Positions 13,186 through 32,862 of a DNA stretch of 64,000 nt are shown piece by piece. Source of the stretch: an uncultured Chloroflexia bacterium. GTDB lineage: Bacteria; Chloroflexota; Limnocylindria; Limnocylindrales; CSP1-4. A model generated the notes under the pieces. It saw only the letters and a program-made list of their open reading frames with translations. It was not told the DNA's origin and did no database searches. The stretch covers positions 294,931-358,930 of the forward strand of contig CAWDFY010000002.1 of NCBI GenBank assembly GCA_963801745.1, given 5' to 3'. Within the stretch, counting starts at the first letter, position 1; every line of letters starts with the position of its first letter. A program made the position numbers and the translations under genes.

Positions 13186-14511
13186 GTGGATCTGCCGACG
13201 GCGCCTCCGTTCGCTGTGCGCGGCCGGCTGCTGACCCCACTCGCAGCGGGCGCCGTCCTCCACGCGGCTGACGGCGTGGTCGAGGTCGATGCGGCGGGTC
13301 GGATCGCCTTCGCCGGTCCCGCCGCCGACCGCCCGGACGTCGCCGCGAGCGCGATCGACCTCCGACCGTGGGTCCTGCTGCCGGGCATGATCGACCTCCA
13401 TGCCCACCTGCCCCAGCTCCCGAACGCCGGGCTCGGTGCCGGCATGGACCTGCTCGCCTGGCTCGAGCGCTACATCTTCCCGCTCGAGCGTGGCTTCGAC
13501 GCCGAGACAGCGGAGCGCGTCGCGCCGGCCGCGTGGCGGGCCTTCGCCGCCGCCGGCACGACGACCGCCCTCGTCTACGGCGCCGTGTACGAGGCGAGCC
13601 TCGACGCGACGTTCCGGGCGGCCGAGGCGCACGGCATCCGGGCCGTCATCGGCAAGGTGATGATGGACCGCATCACCTACGACCCGACGATCGAGCCCTC
13701 GACCATCCTCGACCGATCGCTGGCCGAGAGCGCACGGCTCATCGAGCGGTGGCACGGCGCCGACGACGGCCGGCTGCGCTACGCCGTGACGCCCCGGTTC
13801 GCGGTGTCGTGCACGGCCGAGCTGCTGCACGAGTCGGCGGCCCTCGCGGCGTCGACCGGCGCCTACTGGCAGACCCATGTGTCGGAGGACAAGGGCGAGA
13901 TCGCGGAGGTCGCGCGGCTGTTCCCCGAGGCGATCGACTACGTCGACGTGTACGACCGGGCCGGCGGCCTCGGACCGCGGACCGTGCTCGCCCACGCCGT
14001 GCACCTGTCCGACCGAGAGCTGGGTCGATTGGTCGAGAGCGGGACCCGCGTCGCCCACTGCCCGCTCTCGAACCTGTTCCTCGCCTCGGGCGTGATGCCG
14101 CTCGGGCGGTACCTCGAGGCCGGGCTGTCGCTCGGCCTCGGCTCCGACGTCGCCGGCGGCCCCGACCTCTCGATCTTCAGCGTGATGCGAACCGGGTTCT
14201 ACGCGCAGAACGCGCGACGCGTCGCGGGCCTCGAGCAGGGGCCGGTGCTGGGTCCGCTCGACTGGCTCCGGCTCGGCTCGCTGGCCGGGGCGGAGGTGCT
14301 CGGGCTGGGCGACGTGACCGGATCCCTCGAGACCGGGAAGGAGGCCGACCTGATCGTCGTCGACCCGTCGTACGCGGCGCCGATCCCGGGCGTCGTCGAC
14401 GGCGAGCCGCACGACCTTGCCAGCCGCCTGATCTTCCGCGGCCATCCCGACATGGTGCGTGCGGCGTGGGTGCGCGGCCGCCGCCTGGAGGGGCCGGGAG
14501 CGCGAGGATGA
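13186..14511 (+). CDS. guaD: Guanine deaminase
   Basis: IDLHAHLPQ, YAVTPRFAVSC, QTHVSE, AHAVHL, HCPLSN, GLGSDVAGG. Confidence 0.88.
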   Translation: MDLPTAPPFAVRGRLLTPLAAGAVLHAADGVVEVDAAGRIAFAGPAADRPDVAASAIDLRPWVLLPGMIDLHAHLPQLPNAGLGAGMDLLAWLERYIFPLERGFDAETAERVAPAAWRAFAAAGTTTALVYGAVYEASLDATFRAAEAHGIRAVIGKVMMDRITYDPTIEPSTILDRSLAESARLIERWHGADDGRLRYAVTPRFAVSCTAELLHESAALAASTGAYWQTHVSEDKGEIAEVARLFPEAIDYVDVYDRAGGLGPRTVLAHAVHLSDRELGRLVESGTRVAHCPLSNLFLASGVMPLGRYLEAGLSLGLGSDVAGGPDLSIFSVMRTGFYAQNARRVAGLEQGPVLGPLDWLRLGSLAGAEVLGLGDVTGSLETGKEADLIVVDPSYAAPIPGVVDGEPHDLASRLIFRGHPDMVRAAWVRGRRLEGPGARG

Positions 14512-15333
14512 CGGTACTGCCACCCGAGGCCATGGTCTGGTTGTCGTCCCATGGGATCGCGCCGACGACGGTGCGTCGATTGGGCACGGCGCGCCACGGT
14601 GAGGTGTTCGCGGTCGATGGCCGCGTGTTCCGCTGGTACGGCAGCAGCTCGTTCCTCGAGCACGAGCCAGACGCCATCGCCCGCGAGGTCGCGGCCCTGA
14701 TGGCGCTCGAGGACACGCGGCGTACCCGCGCCGCGGCTGCTCGCGTCGAGCTTCGATCCACCGGCCCTGCTGACGACGATGCGACCCGGCCGGACCGAGC
14801 TCGACACGCGCGACACCGGGGCGATCCTCGCGATGCTCGAGGCCATCCATGCGACCGACGGGGTGCGACTGGCTGGGTGGTCGTACCGCGGCTACCACGA
14901 GGGCCGCGACCTGTCCCGACCCGGCTGGTGGCAGGACGAGTCGGTCTGGGCGCTGGCGATGGGCTCGTCGAAGGTCGGTCCCGGGACGACCGAGCCCGTC
15001 CTGATCCATCGCGACTTCCATCCCGGCAACCTCCTCTGGGGCGATGGCGGGATCAGCGGCGTCGTCGACTGGGCCAATGCCTGCCTGGGACCGGCGGCGT
15101 TCGACCTCGCGCACTATCGAGTCAACCTGGCGACCTTGTTCGGCCCGGAGGTCGCCGACGAGCGGTTCCCGGGCGATCCCGCGTGGGACATCGAGGCGGC
15201 GCTCGGCTTCATCGACCCATGGGACCCGGGGGCGCGCGACGCATGGGCGGGGCCCTGGCCGCATGCCTCGGCCGACGAGGCGCGGGCTCGGCTCGAGGAC
15301 TTCGTCGCTCGCGCGGTGGCCAACCTGCGCTGA
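14508..15333 (+). CDS. Aminoglycoside-phosphotransferase-like kinase (frameshift near 14720-14760)
   Basis: HRDFHPGNLLW and VVDW motifs. Confidence 0.75.
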
Positions 15334-15497
15334 CCCGGCGCGCCGGACAGTCCGGCTCGAGGTAGTCCGTCCCACATGCATGCGGTGGGTACGCTCGGTC
15401 TCACGCCCCGTTCCGCACCCATCGAGTGCACGTGGGACTACATCGTGTCGGAGGTGGCCGCCGCCCGCGGCTCCGGATGACCCGCTATGGTCGGAGC

Positions 15498-17091
15498 GTG
15501 ACCGACAGCGTCGACCTGATCATCACCGGCGGCACGATCGTCGACGGGACCGGGGGGCCAGCCGCGTGCGGGCACGGTGGTCGTCGAGGGCGACCGGATG
15601 CGCGAGCTCGGTCCGGCCGAGGAGCCGCCGCCGAACGCCGGCACCACGATCGACGCCACCGACCGCATCGTCGCGCCGGGGTTCATCGACCTCCACAGCC
15701 ACGGTGGCCTCGTGATCCTCGCCGAGCCGCGCCACGAACCCAAGGTCCGCCAGGGCGTCACGACCGAGATCGTCGGCGTCGACGGCAACGGCTTCGCGCC
15801 GTTCGCCCGGCGCGAGGACCTCGAGGCGTTCGTCCACCTCGACTCGGGCCTCGACGGTCGACCGGACATCGATCTCGGCTGGCGATCGGTCGCCGACTAC
15901 CTCGCCCGCTACGACGACAGCGTCAGCGTGAACATCGGCACGCTAGTCGGGAACTCGGCACTCCGCATCGACGCGCTCGGCTGGGACGACGTGCCCGCCG
16001 ACGAGCGGGCGATCGACCGGATGCGCGGCACGCTCCGCGATGCGATGGCCGAGGGGGCGGTCGGCGTGTCATCGGGGCTCGACTACCCGCCCGGCAGCTA
16101 CGCCACGACCGACGAGCTGGCCGCGCTGACCCGGGCCGCCGGCGAACACGGCGGCTTCTACCACACCCACGTCCGCTACCCGCTCGGCGACCGCTTCCTC
16201 GACCCGTTCAAGGAGGCCATCGAGATCGGCCGGCGGGCGGACGCGCCGAGCCACATCACCCACTTCTACCACCGCCAGACACACCCGGGCGGTCCCGAGC
16301 AGCTGCTCGCGCTCGTCGACGACGCGCGTGCCGAGGGCCTCGACATCACCTTCGACACGTACCCCTACGAGTGGGCGAGCACGCGCCTGCTGATCCAGCT
16401 GCCGCAGTGGATCCAGGCAGGCGGCCCGGTCGCCCTCAAGGAGCGCCTCGCCGACACGGCCACCCGGGCCCGGCTACGGACGGAGATGGGGCCCGCCTAC
16501 ACGAGCGCCGCCGGCTGGTCGGACCTGCGTCTCGGCAACTTCCGGCGGCCGGATCTGCTCCGCTGGGAGTCGCGCTCGCTCGCCGACGTGATGGCGGAGA
16601 CCGGCCAGGACGCGGTCGACGCGATCTGCGACCTGCTGCTCGCCGAGGATCTCGGCATCAGCCAGGTCACGAGCGGGCCGTGGACCGAGACGCTGCCCGA
16701 CTTCGTGAAGCACCCGGTCGGGATGGTCGGCACGGACTCGACGTTCCTCGGGGCCAAGCCCAGCCCCCGCACGTACGGCTCGTTCCCGCGCATCCTCGGG
16801 CAGTTCGTGCGGGACGAGCAGCTGTTGAGCCTTGAGCTGGCGATCCACAAGATGACCGGGGCCGCGGCCACCCGACTGAGCCTGAAGCAACGAGGCCTGA
16901 TCCGCGACGGCGCGTTCGCGGACCTCGTCGTGTTCGACCCGGCGACCATCCGCAGCAACGCGACCTATGACGAGCCGCGCCGCTTCCCGACCGGCATCGA
17001 CCACGTGATCGTCAACGGCACGCCGGTCGTCCGCGACGGGGAGCACACGGGCGCGACGCCAGGTCGCGGGATCCGTCTCGGGGTCGACTGA
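15498..17091 (+). CDS. N-acyl-D-amino-acid deacylase-like amidohydrolase (frameshift near 15560)
   Basis: APGFIDLHSH, GVTTEIVG, SSGLDYPPG, HPRTYG-like PRTYGSFPR, ADLVVFDP. Confidence 0.85.
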
Positions 17092-17106
17092 CCCGTCAGC
17101 GCCCGG

Positions 17107-17676
17107 TCAGGACCCCGGCGCGTAGTGGTGCCGGCGCTCCTCGGTGTACATCCGTTCCGTCGCCACGCGCACGACCGAGGCCATCGATGCATCGCCGGTC
17201 GAGCACGCCCAGCCGATCGACAGGCGCACGCCGATCGAGCCCGATTCGAGCCATTGCTCGCACGCGTGCCGGATGCGCTCGACGTAGTTGATCGCGAGGA
17301 TCTCGTCGGTCTCGGGAAGCATCACCCCGAACCGCCCCGGCTCGAGGCGAGCGACGTAGTCGGCGCGCCTGGCCAGACGGGCGATGGTGTCGCCCAGGGC
17401 AGGTTCGACCCGCTCGGCCGCGTCGGATCCCAGGCGCTCGGCCAGCCGGTCGAGACCGTCGAGGTGGATGATCGCTACGGTCGTCGCCCGGCGGTACCGC
17501 TGCTCGCGGGCATCCTCGTGGGCCAGCGCCTCTTCGAACGCGTCACGATCCAGCAGCCCGGTCAGGTGATCGCGTCCGCGCAGCGCGGGCAACGCGATCG
17601 AACCCGAGGCATATGCGTCGGGCTGGGCGCCACCTGCGGGCGGCGTGCCTCGTGCGGCGTGTTCGGATAGTTCCAT
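17107..17676 (-). CDS. Stand-alone degenerate GGDEF-domain protein
   Basis: DHLTGLLDR and RRADYVARLEPGRF (GGDEF replaced by EPGRF). Confidence 0.8.
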   Translation of the reverse strand: MELSEHAARGTPPAGGAQPDAYASGSIALPALRGRDHLTGLLDRDAFEEALAHEDAREQRYRRATTVAIIHLDGLDRLAERLGSDAAERVEPALGDTIARLARRADYVARLEPGRFGVMLPETDEILAINYVERIRHACEQWLESGSIGVRLSIGWACSTGDASMASVVRVATERMYTEERRHHYAPGS

Positions 17677-17813
17677 CTCGTGGGCCGGGATGATACGCGG
17701 GCCGACCCTGCAGAAATGCAAATCAAGCACGCTCGCGGCGGAAACGCGGTGACGTATCGCACCGAGCCATGCGGTCTGGTGAGGTCCGCGTCGGTGCCGT
17801 ATCGTCTCTGCGC

Positions 17814-20149
17814 ATGACGACCCGGACGTCGGCCCCTGACCCGCTCGTCATCCCGCCGACGACGCCCGTCCCCGGTCGAGCGCGCCCGGCCGGCCCGCTG
17901 CGACGCGAGGGGCCCGCCAAGCTGACCGGCACGGCCCTGTACACCGACGACATCGTCGTGCCGGGTGCCTGGTACGGAGCGACGATCCGGTCGACCGTCG
18001 CGCACGCCACGTTCGAGTCGCTCGAGCTCGACCCGACGTTCGACTGGTCGAAGGTCGTCGTCGTGACCGCCGACGACATCCCGGGCGAGAACGTCGTCAG
18101 CTCGATCAAGGACGACCAGCCGATCCTCGTGCAGGTCGGTGGCGAGATCCAGCACCACGCCGAGCCGCTCGCGCTCATCGCCGCCCCCGACCGGGCCACG
18201 CTGCGCGCGGCGTGCCGGCGGGCCGTGCCGCGGACGACGCCGCTGCCCGCGGTGTTCGACCCGGATGCCTCCGACCACGTCTTCGCCAGCTACGCCATCG
18301 AGCGCGGCGATCCGGACGCGGCGTTCGCCGCCGCGGACCTGATCCTCGAGGGCGAGTACCGGGTCGGCCACCAGGAGCAGCTGTACATCGAGAACAACGC
18401 GATGATCGCCGTCCCGACCGAGGACGGCGGCGTCACCGTCACGGGCTCGCTCCAGTGCCCGTACTACCTGCACGCCGCGCTCATGAAGGGCCTCGGGCTC
18501 GACGACCGGGCGGCGCGGGTCGTCCAGGCCGAGACCGGCGGCGGGTTCGGTGGCAAGGAGGAGTTCCCCTCGGTCATCGGGCTGCACGCGGCGCTGCTCG
18601 CCCGCAAGGCGCAGAAGCCGATCCGGATGATCTATGACCGCCACGAGGACATCGCGGCGACCACCAAGCGCCACCCAGCGATCGTCCGGCACCGCACCGG
18701 GGTGACCCACGACGGCGTGCTCATCGCCCAGGACATCGAGGTCGTGATGGACGGCGGCGCGTACTGCACGCTCACGCCGGTCGTGCTGTCGCGTGGCGCG
18801 CTCCACGCCGGCGGTCCGTACCGCTGTCCGAACGTCCGCATCCGGGCGAAGGCCACCCGCACGAACACGCCGCCCAACGGCGCGTTCCGCGGGTTCGGGG
18901 CGCCGCAGACCGAGTTCGCGGCCGAGACCCATCTCAACCGGATCGCCGAGGCGCTCGAGATCTCGCCGCTCGACATCCGGCGGCGCAACGTCTACCAGCC
19001 CGGCGACACGACCCCGACCGGCCAGGTGCTGCGCGACAGCGTCGCCGGCGAGGAGGTCCTCGAGCGCGCGGCGGAGGCCGCGGAGTTCGGGCACATGCGG
19101 ACACGGACCGGGGACGCGCGGCGGGCGCGCGCGGGTTCGGGCTCGGTACCCGGGTCGGCGCTGCGGACCGAGCGCGACCGGATCGCCTCGGGCGTCGGGC
19201 TCGCCCTCGCCTGGCACGGGGCCGGGTTCACCGGATCGGGCGAGGTCAAGCTGGCGTCGGTCGCCTCGCTCGAGCTGACCGCCGAGGGCCGGGTGCGCAT
19301 CCTGACCGCCTCGACCGAGATGGGCCAGGGCACCAAGACGATCTTCCCGCAGCTCGTGGCCGAGGCGCTCGACGTGCCCGAGGCCGACGTCGAGATCGCG
19401 CCGCAGGACACCGCCTACGTCCCGGATTCCGGGCCGACCGTCGCGTCGCGCACGGCGATGGTCGTCGGGGGGTTGCTCATCACGGCCGCGCGTCGGCTGC
19501 GCGAGCAGGTCGAGGCGGCGACCGGCGGCTCGTTCCGCGAGACGGCCGCCGCGTACGCCCGCGACCACGGCGCGACCCGCATCGACCAGCAGTTCGAGCC
19601 GTACCCCGGCGGCACGCCGTTCGACGACGCGACCTACACCGGCGACGCCTACCCGGCCTTCGGCTGGGCCGCGTGCGTCGCCCATGTCGACGTCGACCTC
19701 GACACCGGCGAGGTCCACGTCCGCGACGTGGTGGCCGCCGATGATATCGGCCGGGTCATCCACCCGGTCCTCGCCGAGGGCCAGGTCGAGGGCGGCACGT
19801 TGCAGGCCGTCGGCTACGCCACGGTCGAGGAGATCAAGCTCCGCGACGGCCGGTACCTGAACGACCGCCTCGCGACGTACATCATCCCGACTGCGCTCGA
19901 CGCGCCGCGCATCGAGACGATCCTCGTCGAGGCACCGTTCGGGGGCGTGCCCCACGGCGCCAAGGGGGTCGGCGAGCTGCCGATGGACGTCGGGGCGCCG
20001 GCGGTCGTCGCCGCGATCGCCGATGCGACCGGTACCTGGATCACGGACCTGCCGGCCAGCCCGGAACGGATCATGGCGGCGCTCGCCGGCCGGCCCGATA
20101 TCGCGGGACCGCGACCCGCGGAGTCCGAGCCGATCCGGGACGTCGCCTC

Positions 20150-20153
<4 letters not shown>
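17814..20153 (+). CDS. Xanthine dehydrogenase family molybdopterin-binding subunit
   Basis: GGGFGGKE, AFRGFGAPQ, EMGQG, TVASRT, QVEGG, KGVGE. Confidence 0.92.
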
Positions 20154-20617
<464 letters not shown>

Positions 20618-20621
<4 letters not shown>

Positions 20622-20879
20622 GCCCATCGGGTGACCGAGTCGCCGTCCCGACCAACGGACACCGCCCACCGCATGACCGACCCGGAGGTCGACAGCCACC
20701 TCGCCGAGGCGACGGATCTCGGCAGCGGCGCCCCCGATCTCGAGTCGATCGGCCCGTCGCGGATCGGCGTGGCGGTGGCCCCGCCCGCCGTGTCGCCGGG
20801 CCAGCTCGCGGTCGGGCTCGGCATCGTGGCCGGGGTGATCCTGCTGATCCTCGGTATCCGTCGCCCCCGGGGCGGCTGA
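20618..20879 (+). CDS. Small single-pass membrane protein inside the xdh operon (probable frameshift near 20670, or start at 20673)
   Basis: ATGA overlap at 20618; C-terminal helix GQLAVGLGIVAGVILLILGIRR. Confidence 0.5.
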
Positions 20880-20899
20880 GGTCCGAGCCGAACCCGTCG

Positions 20900-21760
20900 A
20901 TGCCGGTCGAGCCGCCCGTCACCAGCCCGCGCGACCTCGCGACCGCGTACGCCGCGCTCGGCGCGGGCACGCCCGCGATCCCGGTCCGACCCATCGCCGG
21001 CGGCACCGATCTGATGGTGGCACTCACCGGCGAGCTGGGACCACCGCCGGCGAGCCTCGTCGACCTGTGGGCCATCGACGCGCTGCGCGGCATCGCGATC
21101 GACGGCGACGCGCTGTCGCTCGGGGCGCTCACGACCTACACCGACATCCGCCGCTCGGCGCTGTGCCGCGAGCACGTGCCCGCCCTGGTCGAGGCGGCGG
21201 CGACGATCGGGGCGGCCCAGATCCAGAACCGGGGCACGCTCGGGGGCAACATCGCGAACGCCTCGCCGGCGGGCGACACCCTGCCGGTGCTGCTGGCGGC
21301 CGATGCCGTGTTCGTCCTCGGCTCGGAACGGGGTGAGCGTGAGGTGCGCGCCGACGAGTTCTGGACGGGCTACCGGCAGACGGCGCTCGCCCACGACGAG
21401 CTCGTGGTCCGGATCCGCATCCCGCTCGTCGCGGGCCGCGAGATGCGGTTTCGCAAGGTCGGCACTCGCCGGGCCCAGGCCATCAGCAAGGTCGTGATCG
21501 CGGTCGCGTGGCAGGGCGACGGGACGTGGCGCGATGTCCGCGTCGCGCTCGGGTCGGTGGCGGCCACCCCGATCCGGGCGACCGCCACGGAACGCGCGCT
21601 CGAGGGGCTCGCCCCGACGCCCGAGACCGCCGACCGGGCGGCGGAGATGCTGGCCGGCGAGCTGGCACCGATCGACGACGTCCGGTCGACCGCCGAGTAT
21701 CGCCGCCTCGTGGCGGCGCGGGTCCTCCATCGCATCGTGCGCGAGGCAGGCGGCTGGTGA
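20900..21760 (+). CDS. Xanthine dehydrogenase family FAD-binding subunit
   Basis: IAGGTDLMV, QIQNRGTLGGNIANASPAGD, DDVRSTAEYR. Confidence 0.92.
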   Translation: MPVEPPVTSPRDLATAYAALGAGTPAIPVRPIAGGTDLMVALTGELGPPPASLVDLWAIDALRGIAIDGDALSLGALTTYTDIRRSALCREHVPALVEAAATIGAAQIQNRGTLGGNIANASPAGDTLPVLLAADAVFVLGSERGEREVRADEFWTGYRQTALAHDELVVRIRIPLVAGREMRFRKVGTRRAQAISKVVIAVAWQGDGTWRDVRVALGSVAATPIRATATERALEGLAPTPETADRAAEMLAGELAPIDDVRSTAEYRRLVAARVLHRIVREAGGW

Positions 21761-22743
21761 ACCGGCGTGGGTTCGCGGCGCTGCTCGGCCTCGGCTTCCT
21801 GTCGGCCTGTGCCGCGCCCGCGGCGAGCCCGTCGGCGACGACCGCCCCGTCGAGTTCCGCGGGCGGGACCGCAACGCCGCCCGATGGACGGATCGCATTC
21901 GCGCGGACGGTATTCGACACGGCCACGAACACCCCGACCGGGGGCGACCTGTGGAGCGTCACGACCGACGGGTCGGATCTGCAGCCCCTGACCGACACGC
22001 CAGAGATCGAGCTGTTCCCGGCCTGGTCGCCGGACGCCACCAGGCTGGCGTTCGTGCGCCTCGAATCAACGACGAGCGGCGACATCTGGCTCATCGACGC
22101 CGACCCGACCGCCACCGACCGGCATCTCATCCAGCTGACCGACGGCCCCGGACTCGAGGCCGCCCCGGCCTGGTCACCCGATGGCCGCTCGATCGCCTAC
22201 GTCGACGACTGGCAGGAAGCGCCGAGCGTGTGGATCCGTTCGTCGGACGGAACGGACGACGCACGACGCGTCAGCGACGGGAACTGGCCATCGTGGACGC
22301 CGGACGGGATACGCCTGCTGATCACGGTCGGGGCCGACTTCACGGACACCGAGCTGGCCTACGTCAGCATCGAGGGTGGCGAGCCCGACGTCCTGCCGAT
22401 CCAGGTCCCGAACGCATCTGAGGGTGCCGTCAGCTCGGTCGGCGAGATCGCCTTCGTGTCGAGCGCGAACGACTACGCCAACAGCGATCCGACGACCTGG
22501 AACGAGGACGTCTACTCCGTGGGGTCCGACGGCACACGAGGCCCGACGCAGATCACGAACACGCCCGAGAACGACCACTGGCCGCCATCGTGGTCACCGT
22601 CGGGCGACTGGCTGGCGTACACGAACGACGGCGGCAGGGCCGGTTCGCGGATCGCGATCGTCATCGGGACGCAGGAGCCGATCTACCTGACCGAGGGCGC
22701 GTTCGACTCGTTTCCGGCCTGGCGACCGGAGCCGGCGCCGTGA
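21757..22743 (+). CDS. TolB-like PD40 beta-propeller lipoprotein
   Basis: Lipobox LSAC; repeated PAWSPD / PSWTPD / PSWSPS motifs. Confidence 0.78.
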   Translation: MNRRGFAALLGLGFLSACAAPAASPSATTAPSSSAGGTATPPDGRIAFARTVFDTATNTPTGGDLWSVTTDGSDLQPLTDTPEIELFPAWSPDATRLAFVRLESTTSGDIWLIDADPTATDRHLIQLTDGPGLEAAPAWSPDGRSIAYVDDWQEAPSVWIRSSDGTDDARRVSDGNWPSWTPDGIRLLITVGADFTDTELAYVSIEGGEPDVLPIQVPNASEGAVSSVGEIAFVSSANDYANSDPTTWNEDVYSVGSDGTRGPTQITNTPENDHWPPSWSPSGDWLAYTNDGGRAGSRIAIVIGTQEPIYLTEGAFDSFPAWRPEPAP

Positions 22744-23222
22744 CGGCCCGGGAGGCCGTCCCGGCCGAGATGGCGCCGCTGTTCGAGGGCGCGCCGCGCT
22801 TCCTGGCACGACTGCACGCCGCGAGCCCCTACGCTGACGACACCGCGCTGTTCGAGGCCGCCCGCCGGATCGCCCATCAGATGCCGGAGGATGAGCAGAT
22901 CGAGCTGGTCGATGCGCATCCGCGCCTCGGAGCGCCGTCTGGGACGGTGTCGGCCATGAGCTTCGTCGAGCAGGGCTACGACCGGGGAGCCGGCACGTCC
23001 GGCGACGTCGATGTCGCCGCCGAGCTGGAATGGCTCAACGATTCGTACGAGGCCCAGCACGGGTTCCGCTACTGCGTGTTCGTCGCAGGCCGGCCACGCG
23101 AGGCGCTGCTCCCCGAGATGGCCGCCGCGCTCGCGGCGGACCGGACGACCGAGCTCCATCGCGCCCTCGACGCCGTGGTCGATATCGCCATCGACCGGTA
23201 TGCCAAAGTGGTCCCGCGATGA
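22740..23222 (+). CDS. uraD: OHCU decarboxylase
   Basis: AHPRLG, SxxEQ, LNDSYEAQHGFRYCVFV. Confidence 0.85.
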   Translation: MTAREAVPAEMAPLFEGAPRFLARLHAASPYADDTALFEAARRIAHQMPEDEQIELVDAHPRLGAPSGTVSAMSFVEQGYDRGAGTSGDVDVAAELEWLNDSYEAQHGFRYCVFVAGRPREALLPEMAAALAADRTTELHRALDAVVDIAIDRYAKVVPR

Positions 23223-24067
23223 TCGAGCTCGGTGCCAATCGCTATGGCAAGGCCGCCATCCGGATCGTCCGCGTCGGCCGTGACAGCACCCCGCATCGGC
23301 TCCGCGACCTCACTGTCGCGATCGCCCTCGAGGGCGACTTCACGGCGGCCCACGCCGACGGCGACAACTCGCTGGTCATCGCCACCGACACGATGAAGAA
23401 CACGGCATATGCGTTTGCCGCGGAGCACCTGACCGGCTCGATCGAGGCGTACGCGACGGTCCTCGGGCGCCACTTCCTCGACAACGACCAGGTCGACCGG
23501 GCGGTCGTCAACGTCCGCGAGCACGGCTGGCGGCCTATCGATGGTGCGGCCGGCCCGGCGCCAGACGCGTTCCTGCGGACCGGCGAGGGCACCCGGGTCG
23601 CGACCGTCGCGGTCGGGCGTGACGGCGTCGTCGTCGATGCCGGCATCGAGGACCTCGTCGTGATGAAGACGACCCGCTCGGCATTCTCGGGCTTTCCCCG
23701 CGACCGGTTCACGACCCTGGCCGAGACCGAGGATCGGCTGATGGCCACGAAGCTCACCGCGATCTGGGCCTATGGTGCGCCCGACGTCGACTTCGACGCC
23801 ACGTGGGCGGCCGTCCGTGACACGCTGCTCGAGGTCTTCGCCGACCACGACAGCCCGAGCGTCCAGACGTCGATCTGGATCATGGCCAAGGCGATGCTCG
23901 AGCGGCACGAGGAGCTCGACGAGGTCCGGATGATCCTCCCGAACCTGCACCATTGGACGGTCGACCTCGACCGGTTCGGGGTCGCCAACGACCGGCTCGT
24001 GTACGTCGCCACGACCGAGCCGCACGGCCTGATCGAGGCGACGGTCCGCCGATCGGAGGTGTCCTGA
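23219..24067 (+). CDS. pucL: Urate oxidase (uricase)
   Basis: [29 protein letters not shown]. Confidence 0.92.
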
Positions 24068-25617
24068 TGGCCCCGCCCGGCGTCGTCGTCACCGGTCCGT
24101 CGGTCGAGGGGTCGGATCGCGTCCTGACCGACGAGGCCCTGGCGTTCATCGCCGACCTGCAGCGGCGGTTCGGCCGGTTCCGTCTCGACCTGCTCCAGCG
24201 ACGGCACCAGCGTCAGGCCGCACTCGACGCGGGGCAGCCGCTCGACTTCCCGGCCGGCACGCACGAGATCCGCGAGGCCGACTGGACGGTGGCGCCCGCG
24301 CCGGCCGACTTCGACGACCGCCGGGTCGAGATCACCGGCCCGGCCGAGCCGAAGATGATGATCAACGCCCTCAACTCGGGCGCTCGGGTCTTCATGGCCG
24401 ACCTCGAGGACGCGCTGTCGCCGACCTGGGCGAACGTGGTCGGCGGGCAGGCGGCATTGATCGATGCGGTGCGCGGCACGCTGGCGTTCGACTCGCCCGA
24501 GGGCAAGTCGTATCGGCTCGGCGACCGGATCGCGCAGCTGGTCGTTCGACCGCGCGGCTGGCACCTGGTCGAGTCGCACGTGATGGTCGACGGCGTGCCG
24601 ATGTCGGCGTCGCTGTTCGATGCTGGGCTGTACCTGTTCCACAACGCGGCCGAACGGGTGGCACGCGGGTCGGGGCCGTACCTGTACCTGCCCAAGCTCG
24701 AGTCGCACCACGAGGCGCGGTTGTGGAACGACGTGTTCATCGCGGCCCAGGAGGCGCTCGGTGTGCCGCGTGGCTCGATCCGGGCGACCGTGCTCATCGA
24801 GACCATCACGGCGGCGTTCGAGATGGACGAGATCCTGTACGAGCTGCGCGAGCACGCCGCGGGCCTCAACGCCGGCCGCTGGGACTACCTGTTCAGCGTC
24901 ATCAAGCGGTTCCGCGGGTCGTCGGCGCTGGAGTCGCCCGATCGCGCGCAGCTGACGATGACCGTGCCGTTCATGCGGGCCTACACCGAGCTGCTCGTCG
25001 CGACCTGCCATCGCCGCGGAGCGCACGCGATCGGCGGGATGGCCGCGTTCATCCCGAACCGGCGCGACCCCGAGGTCACCGAACGGGCGCTGGCCAAGGT
25101 CCGCGACGACAAGGAGCGCGAGTCGCGCGACGGGTTCGACGGGACGTGGGTGGCGCATCCCGACCTCGTGCCGCTGGCGACGGAGATCTTCGATTCGGTC
25201 CTCGGCGAGCGCCCGAACCAGAAGGAGCGCGTACCCGAGGCGCAGGCCGCCGCCGCCGACCTGACGCGGTTCGCGGTCGAGGGTGGCGAGGTCACCGATG
25301 CCGGCATGCGCGCCAACGTGCGCGTCGCGCTTGCGTACATCGACTCGTGGCTGCGCGGGACGGGCGCCGCGGCGATCGACAACCTGATGGAGGATGCCGC
25401 GACGGCCGAGATCGCCAGGTCCCAGCTATGGCTGTGGCGGGTCCGCGGGCGTCTGTCCGTGGAGCAGTACGCCGCGATCCGCGACGAGGAGCTGGAGCGT
25501 CTGGGCGGCGCGGGCGAAGGCCGGCTGAAGGACGCCTGGGACCTGCTGGACCACCTCGTCCTCGACGACGACTTCGCCGACTTCCTGACACTCCGGGCGT
25601 ACGCGGTCCTCGAATAG
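24067..25617 (+). CDS. aceB: Malate synthase A
   Basis: [56 protein letters not shown]. Confidence 0.95.
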
Positions 25618-25620
25618 GGG

Positions 25621-25668
25621 TTGACACCATCCGGCCACTGGCGTATATATCGGCCATCGATATATCGA
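25621..25668 (+). promoter_or_regulatory. Sigma70-type promoter plus palindromic operator for padR
   Basis: TTGACA (25621-25626), 17 bp, TATATA (25644-25649); perfect palindrome TCGATATATCGA (25657-25668). Confidence 0.75.
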
Positions 25669-25690
25669 ACGTCGTAAGAGTGGAGTTCGG

Positions 25691-26014
25691 ATGACCACCA
25701 AGTCCCCCGAGTTCGGACGGTTCACCGAGCCGTCGCTGCTCATCCTCGTCAGCCTGAGCGACGGGCCGAAGCATGGCTACGCGATCATGCAGGACGTCGA
25801 GTCCGGGACGGGCCGGCCTATGGGTGCCGGCACGCTATACGCGGCCATCGCGCGCCTCGAGGAGCAGGGCTTCGTCGAACCCATGCCGCCGATCGATCGA
25901 CGTCGGCCCTATCGCCTCACCGCGATCGGCGCGTCGATGCTCGCCGAACAGCTCCACGGCCTTTCCGAGTTCGCCCAGCGCGGGCTCCGACAGCTCGGCA
26001 AGACCCAGCCATGA
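25691..26014 (+). CDS. PadR-family transcriptional regulator
   Basis: GPKHGYAIM, GTLYAAIARLEEQG, RRPYRLT. Confidence 0.9.
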   Translation: MTTKSPEFGRFTEPSLLILVSLSDGPKHGYAIMQDVESGTGRPMGAGTLYAAIARLEEQGFVEPMPPIDRRRPYRLTAIGASMLAEQLHGLSEFAQRGLRQLGKTQP

Positions 26015-26784
26015 GAACCATCCTGGTCCGCTGCTATCCCGCCGCATGGCGGACTCGCTATGGCGACGAGTTCATGGCGCTCCTGGAGGAGCGCCCGCTC
26101 GGCCCGTACGACGTGGCGGACATCCTCATCGGCGCGCTCGACGCGCGACTGCGGTCGCATCGGGCTGCCGGATCACCTGAAAGGGGACTCCCAATGTCGC
26201 TCCGCCTCGGCGGCATCGCCGCCATCGTCGGTGCCGTGATCCTCGCCGTCTCCTGGATCGGGACGATCACGGGGGCCTTGCCGCTGGACGGACGCGCCCT
26301 CGTGGCTCTGATCTTCATCGGGCTCGTCGCCCTGCTCGTCGCGCTCACGATCCTGAGCGCCTTCCAGGCCCGTGCGTTGCCGCGCCTGGTCTGGACGGCA
26401 TTCGCTTTTGCGGCCTTCGGTGCGATCGCGTATACGGTCGGGATGGTCGCGCTGATCGGCGTGAATGAGGGCGACGTGACAGAGGATGGCCAGACGTTCG
26501 CGGCCGCGGCCTATGCGCTCGGTGGCGTGGCCGCCATCGTCGGCTTCGCCCTCTTCGGCCTCGCCACGATCCGCTCGGGCGTCCTGTCGCGGACAGGAGC
26601 CGTGCTGCTCGCCGTCGGTCCGGCGATGGGAGCGGTCGCCTGGGTGGCTTCGTTCACCATCGCCTGGGATTTCGGGGGGCTCATGATGCTGGGCGCCATC
26701 GCGTGCTTCCTTGCCGGCTGGATCGTCCTCGGGATCGCGGCCATCCGCCTCGACCAGCCGATGTCTGAAGCGCGGCCGGCCTGA
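26011..26784 (+). CDS. PadR-associated multi-pass membrane protein
   Basis: YPAAWRTRYGDEF N-terminal motif followed by about 6 TM helices; ATGA overlap. Confidence 0.8.
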   Translation: MRTILVRCYPAAWRTRYGDEFMALLEERPLGPYDVADILIGALDARLRSHRAAGSPERGLPMSLRLGGIAAIVGAVILAVSWIGTITGALPLDGRALVALIFIGLVALLVALTILSAFQARALPRLVWTAFAFAAFGAIAYTVGMVALIGVNEGDVTEDGQTFAAAAYALGGVAAIVGFALFGLATIRSGVLSRTGAVLLAVGPAMGAVAWVASFTIAWDFGGLMMLGAIACFLAGWIVLGIAAIRLDQPMSEARPA

Positions 26785-26816
26785 CCGGCCAGCTCGATCG
26801 AGTGAAGGAGCAGCCG

Positions 26817-27401
26817 ATGGCAAGTTCGCTGGCGGTATCGCCGTCCATGCCGACCCGGGTGCTCGGTGCGGTTGGGATCCTCGGCGGGGTCGTCCTGTTG
26901 GCGGCCTTCGTCGTCGCGATCCCGAGCGACCTGAACACGCTGCGACTCGCCCTGTTCAACCTCGGCGCGATCGCGGTCGCCATCGCCGTCCAGCGACGAC
27001 ATGCAGAGACGGGATCTCGGGTCGCCTTGCTCGTTGCTTCGGCGGTCGTCCTCGCGAATGCCTGGTACCTGGCGATGGTCGTGCTGTCCATCGGTCGCCC
27101 GATACCGCCCGCGCCGGATCCGGACTTCCGGCTTGTCATGTTTTACGCCGGGCTCGCAATGTGGCTGGCGGACTCGGCGTTCGGGTTCGTCACGCTGCGC
27201 CTCGGGCTCGTCACGCGTTGGGGCGCGCTCGCGCTCGGAGTCGGTTCGCTGCTGGCGATCCTCGGCATGAGTCACCTCGAGTTGACGTCGCCGACGAACC
27301 CGACCATCTTCGGACCGCTGTCCCTGCTCGGGATCGCCCTCAACGGGATCGGCTGGATCGTCCTTGGGCTCGACGTCGCACTACGGGGCCGCGAAGCCTG
27401 A
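26817..27401 (+). CDS. Multi-pass membrane protein, probable paralogue of the TM part of the upstream gene
   Basis: AAGGAG SD; about 6 hydrophobic helices with similar layout. Confidence 0.75.
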   Translation: MASSLAVSPSMPTRVLGAVGILGGVVLLAAFVVAIPSDLNTLRLALFNLGAIAVAIAVQRRHAETGSRVALLVASAVVLANAWYLAMVVLSIGRPIPPAPDPDFRLVMFYAGLAMWLADSAFGFVTLRLGLVTRWGALALGVGSLLAILGMSHLELTSPTNPTIFGPLSLLGIALNGIGWIVLGLDVALRGREA

Positions 27402-27430
27402 GCGGTCGCCCCCGGGGCGACGGGCGGAAG

Positions 27431-27867
27431 GGGGTGCCGAGCGATGCACACCGACCGCATCGCTGGTCGGCGGTAAAGGCGCAGTGAAGTCCGCTCGAAC
27501 CTCCGGGCAAGGGGTCGTCGCTACGGTCGGCCGATGGCCTGGTCAGCGGCGGATCGCGAGCGCTGGAAACCGGAGGTGCAGCGCGGCTGGGAGATCCTCG
27601 GGGCGATGGTCAAGCGCCGGCGCATCGCGCTCCACTGGTCGCAACGCGACCTGCAACGCGCGACCGGGATCCACCAAAGCGCGATCTCGCGCCTCGAGAC
27701 CGGGCGACTTTCGGGGCTCCGCATGGCTCGGTTCGCTGCGTTGGTCGCCGCGATGAAGGGCCTCGATCCCGACGCGCCGCATCCGAAACCTCCGCTCAAA
27801 CCCTGGCGCGATTGGGATTGACGCCGCCCCCACAGCGATGCGGCCGGTGTGCATCAACGACCACCCC
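27431..27867. repeat. Imperfect inverted repeat pair flanking an HTH gene
   Basis: 27443-27465 GATGCACACCGACCGCATCGCTG vs 27833-27855 CAGCGATGCGGCCGGTGTGCATC (22/23 complementary); GGGGTG / CACCCC extend outward at equal spacing. Confidence 0.8.
27534..27821 (+). CDS. XRE-family HTH protein
   Basis: RRRIALHWSQRDLQRATGIHQSAISRLETG. Confidence 0.75.
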   Translation: MAWSAADRERWKPEVQRGWEILGAMVKRRRIALHWSQRDLQRATGIHQSAISRLETGRLSGLRMARFAALVAAMKGLDPDAPHPKPPLKPWRDWD

Positions 27868-28006
27868 TCCGGCCGGGTGGCCAGGAATGTGCATCACCGC
27901 AGGCTCGGACGAAGTCGCGGCGTGATAGCGTGACGGCTGCGCCGCACCGGTAGCGGCCTCCATTCCGAAGACGCCCGTGCAGGGCCGTCCAGAAGGAGGT
28001 TTGCCC

Positions 28007-28433
28007 GTGTCATCGATCGAGGTGCGCCGCTTCCGCCGTGACGACCGGGTCCAGCTGACCGCGCTCGTCAACGCCCACGTCGCCGCCGTCATGCCCGGCG
28101 TGACCGTTTCGGTCAACGCGGTCCTGAACCAGCTCGAGCGGGAGCCGGGCGAGTTCATCGTCGATCCGTGGGTCGCCGAACGGCTCACCCTCGTCGCGGA
28201 GCAGCGGGGGCGCATCGTGGGCCGACATCGGCAACCTCGAGGTCGACGAGGCACAGCGCGGGCGGGGCGTCGGCCGCTGGCTCGTCGGCCAGGCAGCGGA
28301 GTGGCTGCGTCTCGGCCGCGTCGACCGGGTCATCGGCTACGCGCAAGGCGACGCGGACCCGTGTCTCGGGTTCCTCGAGCGCGTCGGCTTCCGCGTGCTC
28401 ACCCGGACCCGACGAGGGTGGTCGAAGCCCTAA
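28007..28433 (+). pseudogene. GNAT acetyltransferase with apparent internal deletion and frameshift near 28222
   Basis: AAGGAGG SD; N-terminus ...EQRGRIVG joined out of frame to DIGNLEVDEAQRGRGVGRWL... Confidence 0.55.
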
Positions 28434-29835
28434 CCCGCGATCGCACCCCGCTCGACGAACCGGCCGAACCCACGGCGACCGACGAACGCACCGTCGGCGA
28501 TGACCGGCTCGCCCCGAACGAGCACGTCGCGGACGGCACCGCTGACGTCGAGTCCCTCGTACGGCGTGTAGTCGCTCGTGTGGTGGAGGTCCACCGCGCG
28601 GATGGTCCGCCGTGCCGACGGGATCGAACACGACGATGTCGGCATCGCGACCGACCTCGAGCGCGCCCTTTCGCGCGAGCCCGAACCGCGCGGCCGGCGT
28701 GGTCGCGAGCAGATCGACCATGCGCTCCACCGTCATCCGACCGCGGGCGACACCCTCGCTGTACAGCAGCGTCAGCAGCGTCTCGATGCCGGGTGCCCCG
28801 TTGCTGATCCGATCGAAGGACACGCCACTCGCTGCCTCGGCCTTCTCGACGCCGAACCGGTCGGGGACGTGGTCGGTGGCGACGAGGTCGAGCGAGCCAT
28901 CGGCGAGGCCCTCCCACAACGCGGCCTGGTCCGCCTCGCTGCGCAGCGGCGGGGAGATCACGAAGCAGGCGCACCGGGCCGGATCGGGCTCGTCGTAGCG
29001 GTCCTCGGTGAGGACCAGGTAGTGCGGGCAGGTCTCGGCCGACACCCGGACACCGGCGGCCCGTGCCCGGCGCACCTCGTCGAGCGCCGCCGCCGAGGAG
29101 AGATGGACGACGTGGACGGGCGAGTCGGTGGCGCGCGCGAACGCCAGGGCCCGGGCCGTCGCGACCGCCTCGACGTACGGCGGTCGCGAGGTCGCGTGGT
29201 AGCGCGGCAGCGTGTCACCACGCTGCAGCGCGGCGGCCACGCCGGCGTCGAGCAGCACCGGGTCCTCGCAGTGGACCTGGAGCATCCCGCCGCGCTCGCC
29301 CATGACCCGCATCGCGTCGAAGAGCGCCTGGTCGCCGAGCCGGAAGTCGAACACCATGAACGCCTTCGACGTCGCGACACCCGCCTCGATCGTCGCGGGG
29401 AGCTCGGCGAGGGGGTCGTCGGCGTGACCTGACACGGCGAGCGAGAGGCCGTAGTCGATCGCGCTGTCCCCGTCCGTCGCGGCGCGCCATTCCGTGAGCC
29501 CGGTCCGGAGCGATCGCTCGGCCGCCGGCGACGACCCGGTTCCGGGGTTGTTGAACGACAGGAACGACGTCGTGCCGCCATACGCCGCCGCGACCGAGTC
29601 CTGGAAGAACCGGTCGGGCTCGGCGTCGCTCGCGACGCGGGTATGCGTGTGCGACGTCGACGACGCCGGGGAGGACCAGCATCCCGGTCGCATCGATCAC
29701 CCGGTCGGCTCCGGCTGCGAGGCCATCGAGGGACGGTTCGATCGCCGTGATCCGGCCGCCATCGGCCGCCAGGTCAGCCCGTCGCGATCCCCCGGCGGTG
29801 ACGACCGTGCCGCCGCGGATGACGAGATCGGTCAA
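28430..29835 (-). CDS. Dihydropyrimidinase / D-hydantoinase-like cyclic amidohydrolase, possibly allantoinase (frameshifts near 29650 and 28615)
   Basis: AAAYGGTT, QVHCED, VVHLS, ETCPHYL, SPPLR, ATDH, GAPGIET, DYTPYEG. Confidence 0.85.
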
Positions 29836-29990
29836 TCGCCCCCGTCCCCCCCGTCGCCGTCGCCACCGATGTCCTCGCCGTCGCGTCCCCGGTAGCCTCG
29901 GCTGCGCAGCGATCGCCCGACGACCAACAGGACGACGATGATCACCGCGAAGACCGCGAACTCGGCGATCGTCGAGGCGTCCAGCGTCAG
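29832..29990 (-). CDS. Possible small membrane protein; start uncertain
   Basis: [19 protein letters not shown] helix plus Gly/Asp tail, stop overlapping the next start. Confidence 0.35.
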
Positions 29991-30412
29991 GCCTCGACTT
30001 CCTCGATCCGGATCGCCTGGGCGCCCTCCCACAGCGCCCGCCGGCCGACCTCGCGCAGCCGGTCCCCCCAGCCGTCGTCGGGGACGATCGTCGCGAAGTG
30101 GTTCGCCGCCAGCTGGCCGACCTTCGACGACGTCGTACACGCGCCGTACGGGAAGAAGATCTCGCACTCGCTGATGCCGCCCGGGTACATCGCCAGCATG
30201 CCCGGGGCCGGATGCGAGGTGTGGTTCTCGTAGTCGATGCCGGGGCGGAAGTCGCCGTACGGGATCCATGTCGACTCGCCCGACCAGCGGCAGTGGATCA
30301 GCTTCGACTCGATGGGGAGCATCCGCCGGATCGCCTCGATCGTCTGGGGCGCCTCGGGCTCCCAGCGGGCGCTAAAGTGCAGGTCACCGACCTCGATCCG
30401 CAGGGTTCCCAT
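29987..30412 (-). CDS. DUF3830-family (cyclophilin-like fold) protein
   Basis: [34 protein letters not shown]. Confidence 0.8.
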
Positions 30413-30426
30413 GCCGGGAGGATAGC

Positions 30427-30778
30427 GTGACCGCCGACCCCGGACAGCCGCGCCCGACCATCTCGCACGCACGTCCTCGACACGGAACGTGGGGTGCCGG
30501 CGAGCGGCGTCCGCGTCACGCTCTATCGACTCGACGTCGGCGGCAACGGCCCGCTCCGGATGACCCAGGCGCTGACCGATGCCGACGGACGCGTCCGCGA
30601 CCTGCTCGAGCGGCCGCTCATGGTCGGCGACTACCGCCTCGAGTTCGATGTCGCCCACGAGGACGGCTCGTTCTTCACGAAGATCGCGGTCGACCTGCAG
30701 ATCACCGACCCGGAGCGGAGCTACCACGTGCCGCTGCTGCTGGCGCCCTATTCGATGACGACCTACCGCGGCTCGTAG
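30427..30778 (+). CDS. uraH: 5-hydroxyisourate hydrolase (frameshift near 30470)
   Basis: HVLDT, TDADGR, C-terminal [18 protein letters not shown]. Confidence 0.88.
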
Positions 30779-30790
30779 CCGCCGGTCGCG

Positions 30791-32788: not shown

Positions 32789-32819
32789 CTGTCGTCATCG
32801 TACCGCCCCGCCGTAAATG

Positions 32820-32842
32820 CCGTGACAACCTAGATGTCACGG
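32820..32842. promoter_or_regulatory. 8-bp inverted repeat in a divergent promoter region
   Basis: CCGTGACA-N7-TGTCACGG. Confidence 0.5.
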
Positions 32843-32862
32843 GTGGGTCCTATGTTCGGTGC

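Follow-up and report, generated by a model that had tools for sequence, protein, structure and literature searches.

Purine and ureide breakdown is a main nitrogen-recycling route in soil, and the Limnocylindria are abundant soil bacteria. In the known route through the allantoate amidohydrolase AllC, this enzyme requires a ureidoglycine aminohydrolase as its partner. Here, we analyzed a stretch of 64,000 nucleotides from the genome of an uncultured Limnocylindria bacterium (hereafter the window; G000:C2:294931-358930), which contains a purine-to-malate catabolic island whose allantoin-to-glyoxylate segment appears to be run by three non-canonical proteins: a hydantoinase-type cyclic amidohydrolase (hyd), a D-aminoacylase-family amidohydrolase (Amh3), and a small protein of the DUF3830 family. 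For haloarchaea, the reconstruction of the Haloferax volcanii cluster assigned an M20 enzyme as ureidoglycolate hydrolase, left the step from allantoate to ureidoglycolate unassigned, and made no reference to DUF3830 (Pfeiffer and Dyall-Smith 2021; PMC8305020).

Our comparison of genomes and loci leads us to regard DUF3830 as fairly probably an enzyme of the allantoate-to-glyoxylate segment that stands in place of allantoicase. A fuller proposal, which we favor by a narrow balance of probability, is that DUF3830 represents an unrecognized family of cyclophilin-fold enzymes that act on allantoate or ureidoglycine by cleaving a C-N bond of the alpha-carbon. On this view, the family would replace allantoicase and/or ureidoglycine aminohydrolase non-homologously in soil Chloroflexota, Gemmatimonadota, and haloarchaea. 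In the present lineage, it would act alongside a hydantoinase and a D-aminoacylase, both recruited, and the entire segment from allantoin to glyoxylate would be non-canonical. The three candidate genes are the following, with DUF3830 preceding hyd on the minus strand:

29987-30412, minus strand: DUF3830 protein P0001, 141 amino acids (aa); PF12903 at 84.6-86 bits, cut-off 26
28430-29835, minus strand: hyd, a hydantoinase/dihydropyrimidinase-type cyclic amidohydrolase, in three reading frames in the assembly
15577-17091, plus strand: Amh3, a D-aminoacylase-family amidohydrolase (Amidohydro_3); PF07969 at 99 bits, above its cut-off, and NF006560 at 181 bits, below its cut-off of 340

The gap between allantoin and glyoxylate and its candidate enzymes

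The source genome (3.38 Mb in 5 contigs, 72% G+C, 77% complete by marker genes) was searched as six-frame translations of its whole length with stop codons read through, so that frameshifted genes would still be detectable. Within it, we found no allantoicase (PF03561), AllC (TIGR03176), or ureidoglycolate lyase (PF04115), no PuuE (TIGR03212) beyond a 24-bit fragment, and no bicupin ureidoglycine aminohydrolase (TIGR03214; best match 25 bits against a cut-off of 200). The initial annotation, which had recognized no late ureide enzymes, is therefore borne out by a genome-wide search for alc, allC, allE, allA, and puuE. Positive controls for these searches gave matches, both in a genome of the class (G083) and in the named control genomes. 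The canonical enzymes were likewise not found in nine genomes of the same genus (91-94% complete), apart from a weak lyase match in one of them (G041), nor in about 90 other genomes of the class that are urate-positive. Altogether, our tallies cover 302 genomes, 151 of the class and 151 Gemmatimonadota; the former include seven flagged as unpublished (G067, G087, G091, G096, G106, G112, G123), on which no conclusion rests and from which none of the compared loci was taken. Across the class, DUF3830 occurs in 113 genomes and uricase in 93, allantoicase in a single one (G083, itself without DUF3830 and uricase), and ureidoglycolate lyase in G041 alone (54 bits, on a small contig). Ureidoglycine aminohydrolase was found in 0/151 genomes of the class and 0/151 Gemmatimonadota, and ureidoglycolate lyase in 0/151 Gemmatimonadota. 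The pathway hole between allantoin and glyoxylate is real.

Glyoxylate is the expected product of the missing segment, because the only malate synthase match of the genome sits in the cluster and the search of this genome for isocitrate lyase gave no true member, just weak fragmentary matches to that family within a 275-aa frame. In most of the loci compared, malate synthase lies together with urate genes. Besides, a urease alpha subunit is encoded in the source genome.

Gene order was compared by tblastn with reference proteins on 80 public loci and on 34 regions from the searched genomes; a locus scan with a narrower DUF3830 alignment gave mostly Limnocylindria. Many of the public loci near-identical to the window come from long-read soil metagenome-assembled genomes (MAGs). 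Every informative locus, about 110 from Limnocylindria and Gemmatimonadota, contains the same core, in which uraH is divergent from a DUF3830-cyclic amidohydrolase pair. The surroundings of this core take three forms:

Configuration A, in family f1 (that of the source genome) and family f4: DUF3830 with a hydantoinase-type hyd, Amh3 adjoining guaD and xdh, and malate synthase
Configuration B, in genera g17 and g23 of family f3 and in Gemmatimonadota: DUF3830-AllB-M20, in most cases with guaD and xdh next
Configuration C, in genera g15, g18, and g20 of family f3: DUF3830-AllB-guaD-xdh, the cluster lacking an M20 gene

In the g15 locus examined (G001, L113 8259-9461), a PuuD-type membrane urate oxidase (PF06181, 386 bits) takes the place of uricase, and the uraD-uraH/DUF3830-AllB core is kept.

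The occurrence of DUF3830 follows that of the urate genes. Within family f1, DUF3830, uricase, and an Amh3 ortholog are found in the same 20/44 genomes, and the other 24 have none of the three, except for one distant Amh3 paralog. Among the 151 Gemmatimonadota, uraD was detected in 23, nine with an adjacent DUF3830 gene and 14 with an adjacent allantoicase gene; none had both and none had neither. Two cluster types result, xdh-AllB-Alc-uraD-uraH on the one hand and malate synthase-xdh-M20-AllB-DUF3830/uraH-uraD on the other. The DUF3830 type contains M20 in addition to DUF3830 and the allantoicase type lacks M20, which amounts to two genes for one. That DUF3830 serves a later ureide step had been put forward in the initial annotation, and this placement is now favored by the adjacency to allantoinase genes in about 110 loci, by the match with uricase in 20 of the 44 f1 genomes, and by a phylogenetic profile in which DUF3830 (9) and allantoicase (14) never overlap among the 23 uraD-positive Gemmatimonadota.

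In the allantoicase-type clusters of Gemmatimonadota (L118-L127), the OHCU decarboxylase directly follows the allantoicase repeats, either adjacent or fused, and there is neither an M20 nor a malate synthase gene within 10 kb. The allantoicase locus of G083 (L111; G083:C27) has adjoining AllB-like, Alc, and M20 genes, but no uricase or DUF3830; its M20 comes nearest to 5THW and 5I4M and differs in subtype from the AllC-like cluster M20.

The DUF3830 protein itself is 77-95% identical across many Limnocylindria, and its alignment shows invariant polar residues; W43, S44, G45, E62, N63, and H105 are among the invariant positions. The family counts more than 5000 database relatives, in 830 clusters at 50% identity. 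An AlphaFold2 model (pLDDT 96.2) has a cyclophilin-like beta-barrel, and a Foldseek search with it returned the structure 3KOP (E 3e-9, TM score 0.73-0.81) and the Pictet-Spenglerases KslB and McbB (E 1e-6), the latter two being enzymes of amine/carbonyl (imine) chemistry. A sequence search of the PDB with DUF3830 gave nothing meaningful, 3KOP having surfaced in the fold search only. No paper on DUF3830 or PF12903 was found in the literature searched, and a search combining cyclophilin-like proteins with allantoin gave nothing relevant. The gene often overlaps that of the cyclic amidohydrolase by start and stop codons, and the partner amidohydrolases belong to two subfamilies.

For hyd, the main argument is positional: it is read as an allantoinase because a hydantoinase type replaces true AllB in the same slot after DUF3830. 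Family f3 Limnocylindria, like Gemmatimonadota, have a bona fide AllB (TIGR03178, 507-530 bits) encoded immediately after DUF3830. Against the same model (cut-off 357.85), the frameshifted hyd of the window reaches 201 bits and an intact ortholog (L013) 270.7 bits, both below. Under the D-hydantoinase/dihydropyrimidinase model TIGR02033 (cut-off 393.25), the L013 ortholog scores 400.8 bits, barely over, and the frameshifted hyd 315 bits; a separate, true dihydropyrimidinase paralog on another contig of the same genome scores 575 bits. The binuclear metal ligands (HxH, carbamylated Lys, His, His, and Asp, corresponding to H62, H64, K157, H188, H244, and D321) are invariant in an alignment of 29 orthologs (A4). 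All of them are present in the ortholog P0271 of the closest relative (L019) and, once the frames are joined, in hyd of the window, and they are invariant across AllB and hydantoinase types. Hyd is thus probably the allantoinase of the cluster, as the initial annotation had supposed for its HydA-like enzyme; the AllB-occupied slot of sister lineages, the retained metal ligands, and the separate dihydropyrimidinase lend this comparative support. A complex prediction for hyd and DUF3830, made without controls, reached 0.00 where the mark is 0.32, and was used neither for nor against any reading.

Amh3 has its closest solved structures in 9G5M (226 bits) and the D-aminoacylase 1M7J (213 bits). 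Its metal site retains the HSH motif, and the Cys ligand of D-aminoacylase aligns to Asp in the best PDB alignment. All 20 urate-positive f1 genomes and 49/50 f4 genomes carry orthologs at 63-85% identity; family f3 has only 37-42% identical paralogs, located elsewhere. Conversely, an AllC-like M20 is found in 49/49 f3 genomes, but in 1/44 of f1 and 2/50 of f4, and Amh3 sits beside guaD and xdh in f1 and f4 where M20 sits in f3. This complementary lineage distribution within one neighborhood suggests that Amh3 took over the job of M20. It also favors the idea, raised at the outset, that the deacylase acts in a later ureide step, since Amh3 orthologs occur in precisely those urate-cluster genomes that have no AllC-like M20.

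Order of the proposed steps and alternative explanations

Our scheme, which we advance tentatively and with less than even confidence as far as the order of steps is concerned, runs from hyd over Amh3 or M20 to DUF3830. Hyd would open allantoin to allantoate. Acting as an allantoate amidohydrolase, Amh3 would then strip one carbamoyl group from allantoate to yield ureidoglycine, CO2, and NH3, a job that would fall to the AllC-like M20 in sister lineages. DUF3830 would act on the unstable ureidoglycine, releasing NH3 as ureidoglycine aminohydrolase does and possibly urea as well, and the resulting glyoxylate would pass to malate synthase. We favor this order because the M20 is AllC-like, no aminohydrolase was found, two genes replace one allantoicase, and the haloarchaeal gene order agrees with it.

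Several points weigh against this scheme. It leaves the cleavage of ureidoglycolate without an enzyme. The configuration C genera g15, g18, and g20 have neither a cluster M20 nor an Amh3 ortholog, just a generic HD-M20 pair elsewhere, and this configuration fits better with DUF3830 acting directly on allantoate. In family f3 genomes, the generic M20 gene lies with an HD-domain gene, MerR, thiolase, and acyl-CoA dehydrogenase, a context that is not ureide-specific. The likeness of the cluster M20 to AllC was judged by pitting a bacterial AllC against a plant ureidoglycolate amidohydrolase (UAH), and may hence reflect phylogeny and not function. Paracoccus carries two DUF3830 genes next to canonical allE and M20, where a ureidoglycine aminohydrolase role of DUF3830 would be redundant. 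Moreover, DUF3830 also occurs beyond purine clusters, with other hydantoinases, GntR regulators, and peptide-type binding proteins or in paralog arrays, and the family is not tied to one substrate. Finally, the lineage patterns reflect few evolutionary events among related genomes and are not independent samples.

A second order of steps also fits the data, with a probability just slightly lower: DUF3830 would instead be a non-homologous analog of allantoicase, converting allantoate to urea and ureidoglycolate and perhaps releasing the second urea too, with Amh3 or M20 acting afterwards as ureidoglycolate amidohydrolase or being dispensable. DUF3830 and allantoicase exclude each other while each adjoins AllB in urate clusters, and the minimal invariant module consists of DUF3830 and the cyclic amidohydrolase, some genera having no cluster M20 or Amh3 ortholog. 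The side-by-side AllB-like, Alc, and M20 genes of G083 (L111) mirror DUF3830-AllB-M20. With M20 or Amh3 as UAH, every step to glyoxylate would be covered. The H. volcanii reconstruction casts M20 as the ureidoglycolate hydrolase and names no enzyme for allantoate to ureidoglycolate (PMC8305020). The urease of the source genome could use the released urea. However, the f3 cluster M20 is nearer to E. coli AllC (278 bits) than to Arabidopsis UAH (197 bits). The allantoicase-type clusters of Gemmatimonadota lack M20, which hence looks like part of the replacement rather than an add-on. Likewise, the operons of Halorubrum and Natrinema, in which M20, DUF3830, and a D-2-hydroxyacid dehydrogenase gene overlap (with an AllB-like gene upstream in Halorubrum), put M20 ahead of DUF3830. 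A narrower role as a ureidoglycolate urea-lyase that merely replaces AllA, with ureidoglycine being deaminated spontaneously or by another protein, seems improbable: such an enzyme should turn up together with allantoicase, the way AllA accompanies Alc in the classical route, but does so in 0/14 Gemmatimonadota and 0/1 Limnocylindria. In its favor, AllA is missing from almost all searched genomes, and Paracoccus pairs its two DUF3830 genes with allE and M20, where the lyase step is still needed.

Two further explanations would take DUF3830 out of the pathway or remove the gap altogether. DUF3830 accompanies ring-opening amidohydrolases of two subfamilies, often with start/stop overlap, and hydantoinases outside purine clusters too, as might a racemase of allantoin or hydantoin, or a non-catalytic protein that assists or regulates the cyclic amidohydrolase. 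Yet the same AllB does without DUF3830 in allantoicase-type clusters, and neither role would predict the exclusivity with allantoicase. In addition, a Rhizobium locus carries an Asp/Glu-type (hydantoin) racemase alongside DUF3830, and the very strong conservation of DUF3830 (77-95% across many Limnocylindria) with its invariant polar residues speaks for an enzyme; we consider this explanation quite improbable. That there is no real gap, either because canonical enzymes went unassembled or because the pathway goes no further than allantoin or allantoate, with malate synthase drawing on a different source of glyoxylate, appears very improbable. The genome is 77% complete and contains indel errors, and G041 of the same genus has its weak lyase match, but the nine more complete genomes of the genus and the roughly 90 urate-positive genomes of the class lack the canonical enzymes as well. 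Broken genes would have been matched by the stop-tolerant six-frame searches, and the positive controls gave matches. Malate synthase clusters with urate genes in most loci, and the genome yielded no true isocitrate lyase. As a whole, the reading of the initial annotation, in which hyd would act as allantoinase and DUF3830 and/or Amh3 in later steps, is supported at the comparative-genomic level.

Gene layout and assembly quality of the island

Gene order in the window was read from third-position G+C together with Pfam and NCBIfam matches. The remaining genes of the island are:

13186-14511, plus strand: guaD, guanine deaminase-like amidohydrolase (PF01979; TIGR02967 at 344 bits, below its cut-off of 375)
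17769-20153, plus strand: xdh-family molybdopterin subunit (PF02738, PF20256, PF01315; TIGR03196, pucD, at 479 bits, below its cut-off of 784)
about 20178-20621, plus strand: xdh-family 2Fe-2S subunit (PF01799; tblastn of the L013 ortholog matches 20178-20606)
about 20891-21760, plus strand: xdh-family FAD subunit (PF00941, PF03450; tblastn matches 20891-21757)
about 22752-23222, plus strand: uraD, OHCU decarboxylase (PF09349, 103 bits)
about 23228-24067, plus strand: pucL, factor-independent urate oxidase (uricase; TIGR03383 at 300 bits, above its cut-off of 168)
about 24121-25617, plus strand: malate synthase A (TIGR01344 at 692 bits, above its cut-off of 594.5)
30427-30778, plus strand: uraH, 5-hydroxyisourate hydrolase (PF00576, 72 bits; TIGR02962; GTG start)

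By family membership, these are assigned as a guaD-like enzyme, an xdh-family enzyme, uricase, UraH, and UraD, predicted to make (S)-allantoin, and a malate synthase A predicted to consume glyoxylate. The urate-to-allantoin module of PucL, UraH, and UraD is complete and clustered, with uraH requiring one frame correction. The inventory of the initial annotation (guaD, three xdh subunits, uraD, pucL, aceB, uraH, DUF3830, and the hydantoinase-like and D-aminoacylase-like enzymes) was recovered in full by the family searches. In relatives, guaD adjoins Amh3 or xdh.

Unrelated genes are interspersed: a phosphotransferase (APH) fragment after guaD (14779-15333, plus strand), an oppositely oriented GGDEF gene that separates Amh3 from xdh (17107-17730, minus strand), a PD40-repeat gene between the xdh FAD subunit and uraD (21800-22743, plus strand), a PadR gene followed by two genes for membrane proteins, and a small helix-turn-helix gene. 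The PD40-repeat, GGDEF, and APH genes look like unrelated insertions into the island. The 257-aa and 199-aa proteins encoded after PadR were rejected as enzymes, as both are multi-pass membrane proteins. Between the 2Fe-2S and FAD subunit genes lies an 82-aa open reading frame (20631-20879, plus strand; third-position G+C 0.93); a relative (L015) has a 78-aa frame without a Pfam match in its place, and no tblastn similarity between the two was found at E 1e-5. The starts of DUF3830 (ATG, 30412, minus strand) and uraH (GTG, 30427, plus strand) lie head to head across a 14-bp gap containing GGGAGGA (30410-30429), so that each promoter would lie within the other gene. The two starts likewise face each other across a short gap in relatives.

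Further along, a 421-aa protein (32834-34112, plus strand) is conserved, soluble, and helix-rich, with a PD-(D/E)xK-like motif, no Pfam match, and a frameshift near 33622. In relatives, its gene is often the last of a uraH-uraD-uricase operon, beside Ku and LigD. We rejected it as a gap-filler of the pathway, since it lies towards Ku/LigD and is missing from many DUF3830 clusters, and no link of this protein to ureide chemistry was found.

Four single-base insertions fall within 5.7 kb (28430-34112): two +1 frameshifts in hyd, from 1-nt insertions near 29655 and 28618, one 1-nt insertion in uraH near 30463 (by frame comparison with L019), and a fourth in the 421-aa gene. Neighboring genes totaling about 7 kb (guaD, Amh3, the xdh molybdopterin subunit, and malate synthase) are intact, which suggests that 28430-34112 is a local low-quality stretch of a long-read assembly. 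The breaks in hyd, uraH, and the 421-aa gene look like long-read consensus errors and not decay, because hyd (P0271) and uraH are unbroken in the closest relative (L019, about 94% DNA identity), the same genes are shifted at different positions in other long-read MAGs, and short-read MAGs show no shifts. On these grounds, and given the clustering of the insertions, we rejected hyd as a decaying pseudogene.

Elsewhere, some Limnocylindria contain arrays of 4-13 divergent DUF3830 paralogs (G031:C64 and C65, corresponding to L138 and L139; G025:C136; G022:C15). The G031 array has family-5 solute-binding proteins, a GntR/FCD regulator, an aldehyde:ferredoxin oxidoreductase, and a major facilitator superfamily transporter as neighbors. 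Such arrays point to a wider substrate use by the family, whose substrate range probably varies. The contexts of the G031 arrays and of solo DUF3830 genes in Gemmatimonadota were uninformative on chemistry.

Comparison with known ureide routes and related proteins

Should the proposed reading be true, a ureide pathway variant built from recruited, partly uncharacterized enzymes would be new, and it would give a role to DUF3830, a family of more than 5000 database proteins without known function. It would also fill an acknowledged gap in haloarchaeal purine degradation and add a further non-homologous replacement of a ureide step to those of PuuE versus AllB and of allantoicase versus AllC plus ureidoglycine aminohydrolase. 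In addition, many urate-cluster genes automatically named "dihydropyrimidinase" or "amidohydrolase family protein" would need re-annotation.

Among the known routes, the allantoicase route (Pseudomonas/Streptomyces type, present in the 14 sampled Gemmatimonadota) follows the same logic, with xdh, allantoinase, and an allantoate-degrading gene near uraD and uraH. DUF3830 holds the place of Alc beside the allantoinase, and in Gemmatimonadota the two are mutually exclusive. At 141 aa and with a cyclophilin-like fold, DUF3830 shows no similarity to the double jelly-roll of allantoicase, and DUF3830-type clusters, unlike those of the allantoicase type, usually include M20 or Amh3 as a further amidohydrolase, and malate synthase. 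The E. coli route (AllB/AllC/AllE/AllA/AllD) shares with the sister lineages a true AllB and an AllC-like M20 near DUF3830, and the chemistry we propose would be the same. Unlike in that route, the bicupin AllE was not found in the genomes searched, nor was the AllA lyase save for the weak match in G041, and the source genome has a hydantoinase-type paralog instead of AllB and a D-aminoacylase-family enzyme instead of AllC.

The H. volcanii cluster on pHV3 (HVO_B0299-B0310) shares xdh-like subunits, M20, DUF3830, an allantoinase-like amidohydrolase, uraD, pucL, and uraH, and also includes a nucleobase permease; its DUF3830 gene (HVO_RS01470) lies next to HVO_B0306. It differs in being archaeal and plasmid-borne, in having DUF3830 after M20 rather than before allantoinase, and in having no malate synthase in the cluster. 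Halalkalicoccus also has DUF3830 inside a urate cluster.

At the protein level, DUF3830 has the same fold as 3KOP (a cyclophilin-like protein of Arthrobacter sp. FB24 with no assigned function), KslB, and McbB, with TM scores of about 0.7-0.8. The identity is only 18-20%, though, and KslB and McbB, which make beta-carbolines, are twice as long. Finally, the pairing of hyd and Amh3 in families f1 and f4 recalls the hydantoinase process (D-hydantoinase with a D-decarbamoylase or deacylase), in that hyd, by its L013 ortholog, scores barely as a D-hydantoinase/dihydropyrimidinase and Amh3 belongs to the D-aminoacylase family. Yet the context here is urate catabolism, and Amh3 departs from 1M7J in having Asp for the Cys ligand and in scoring below the NCBIfam cut-off.

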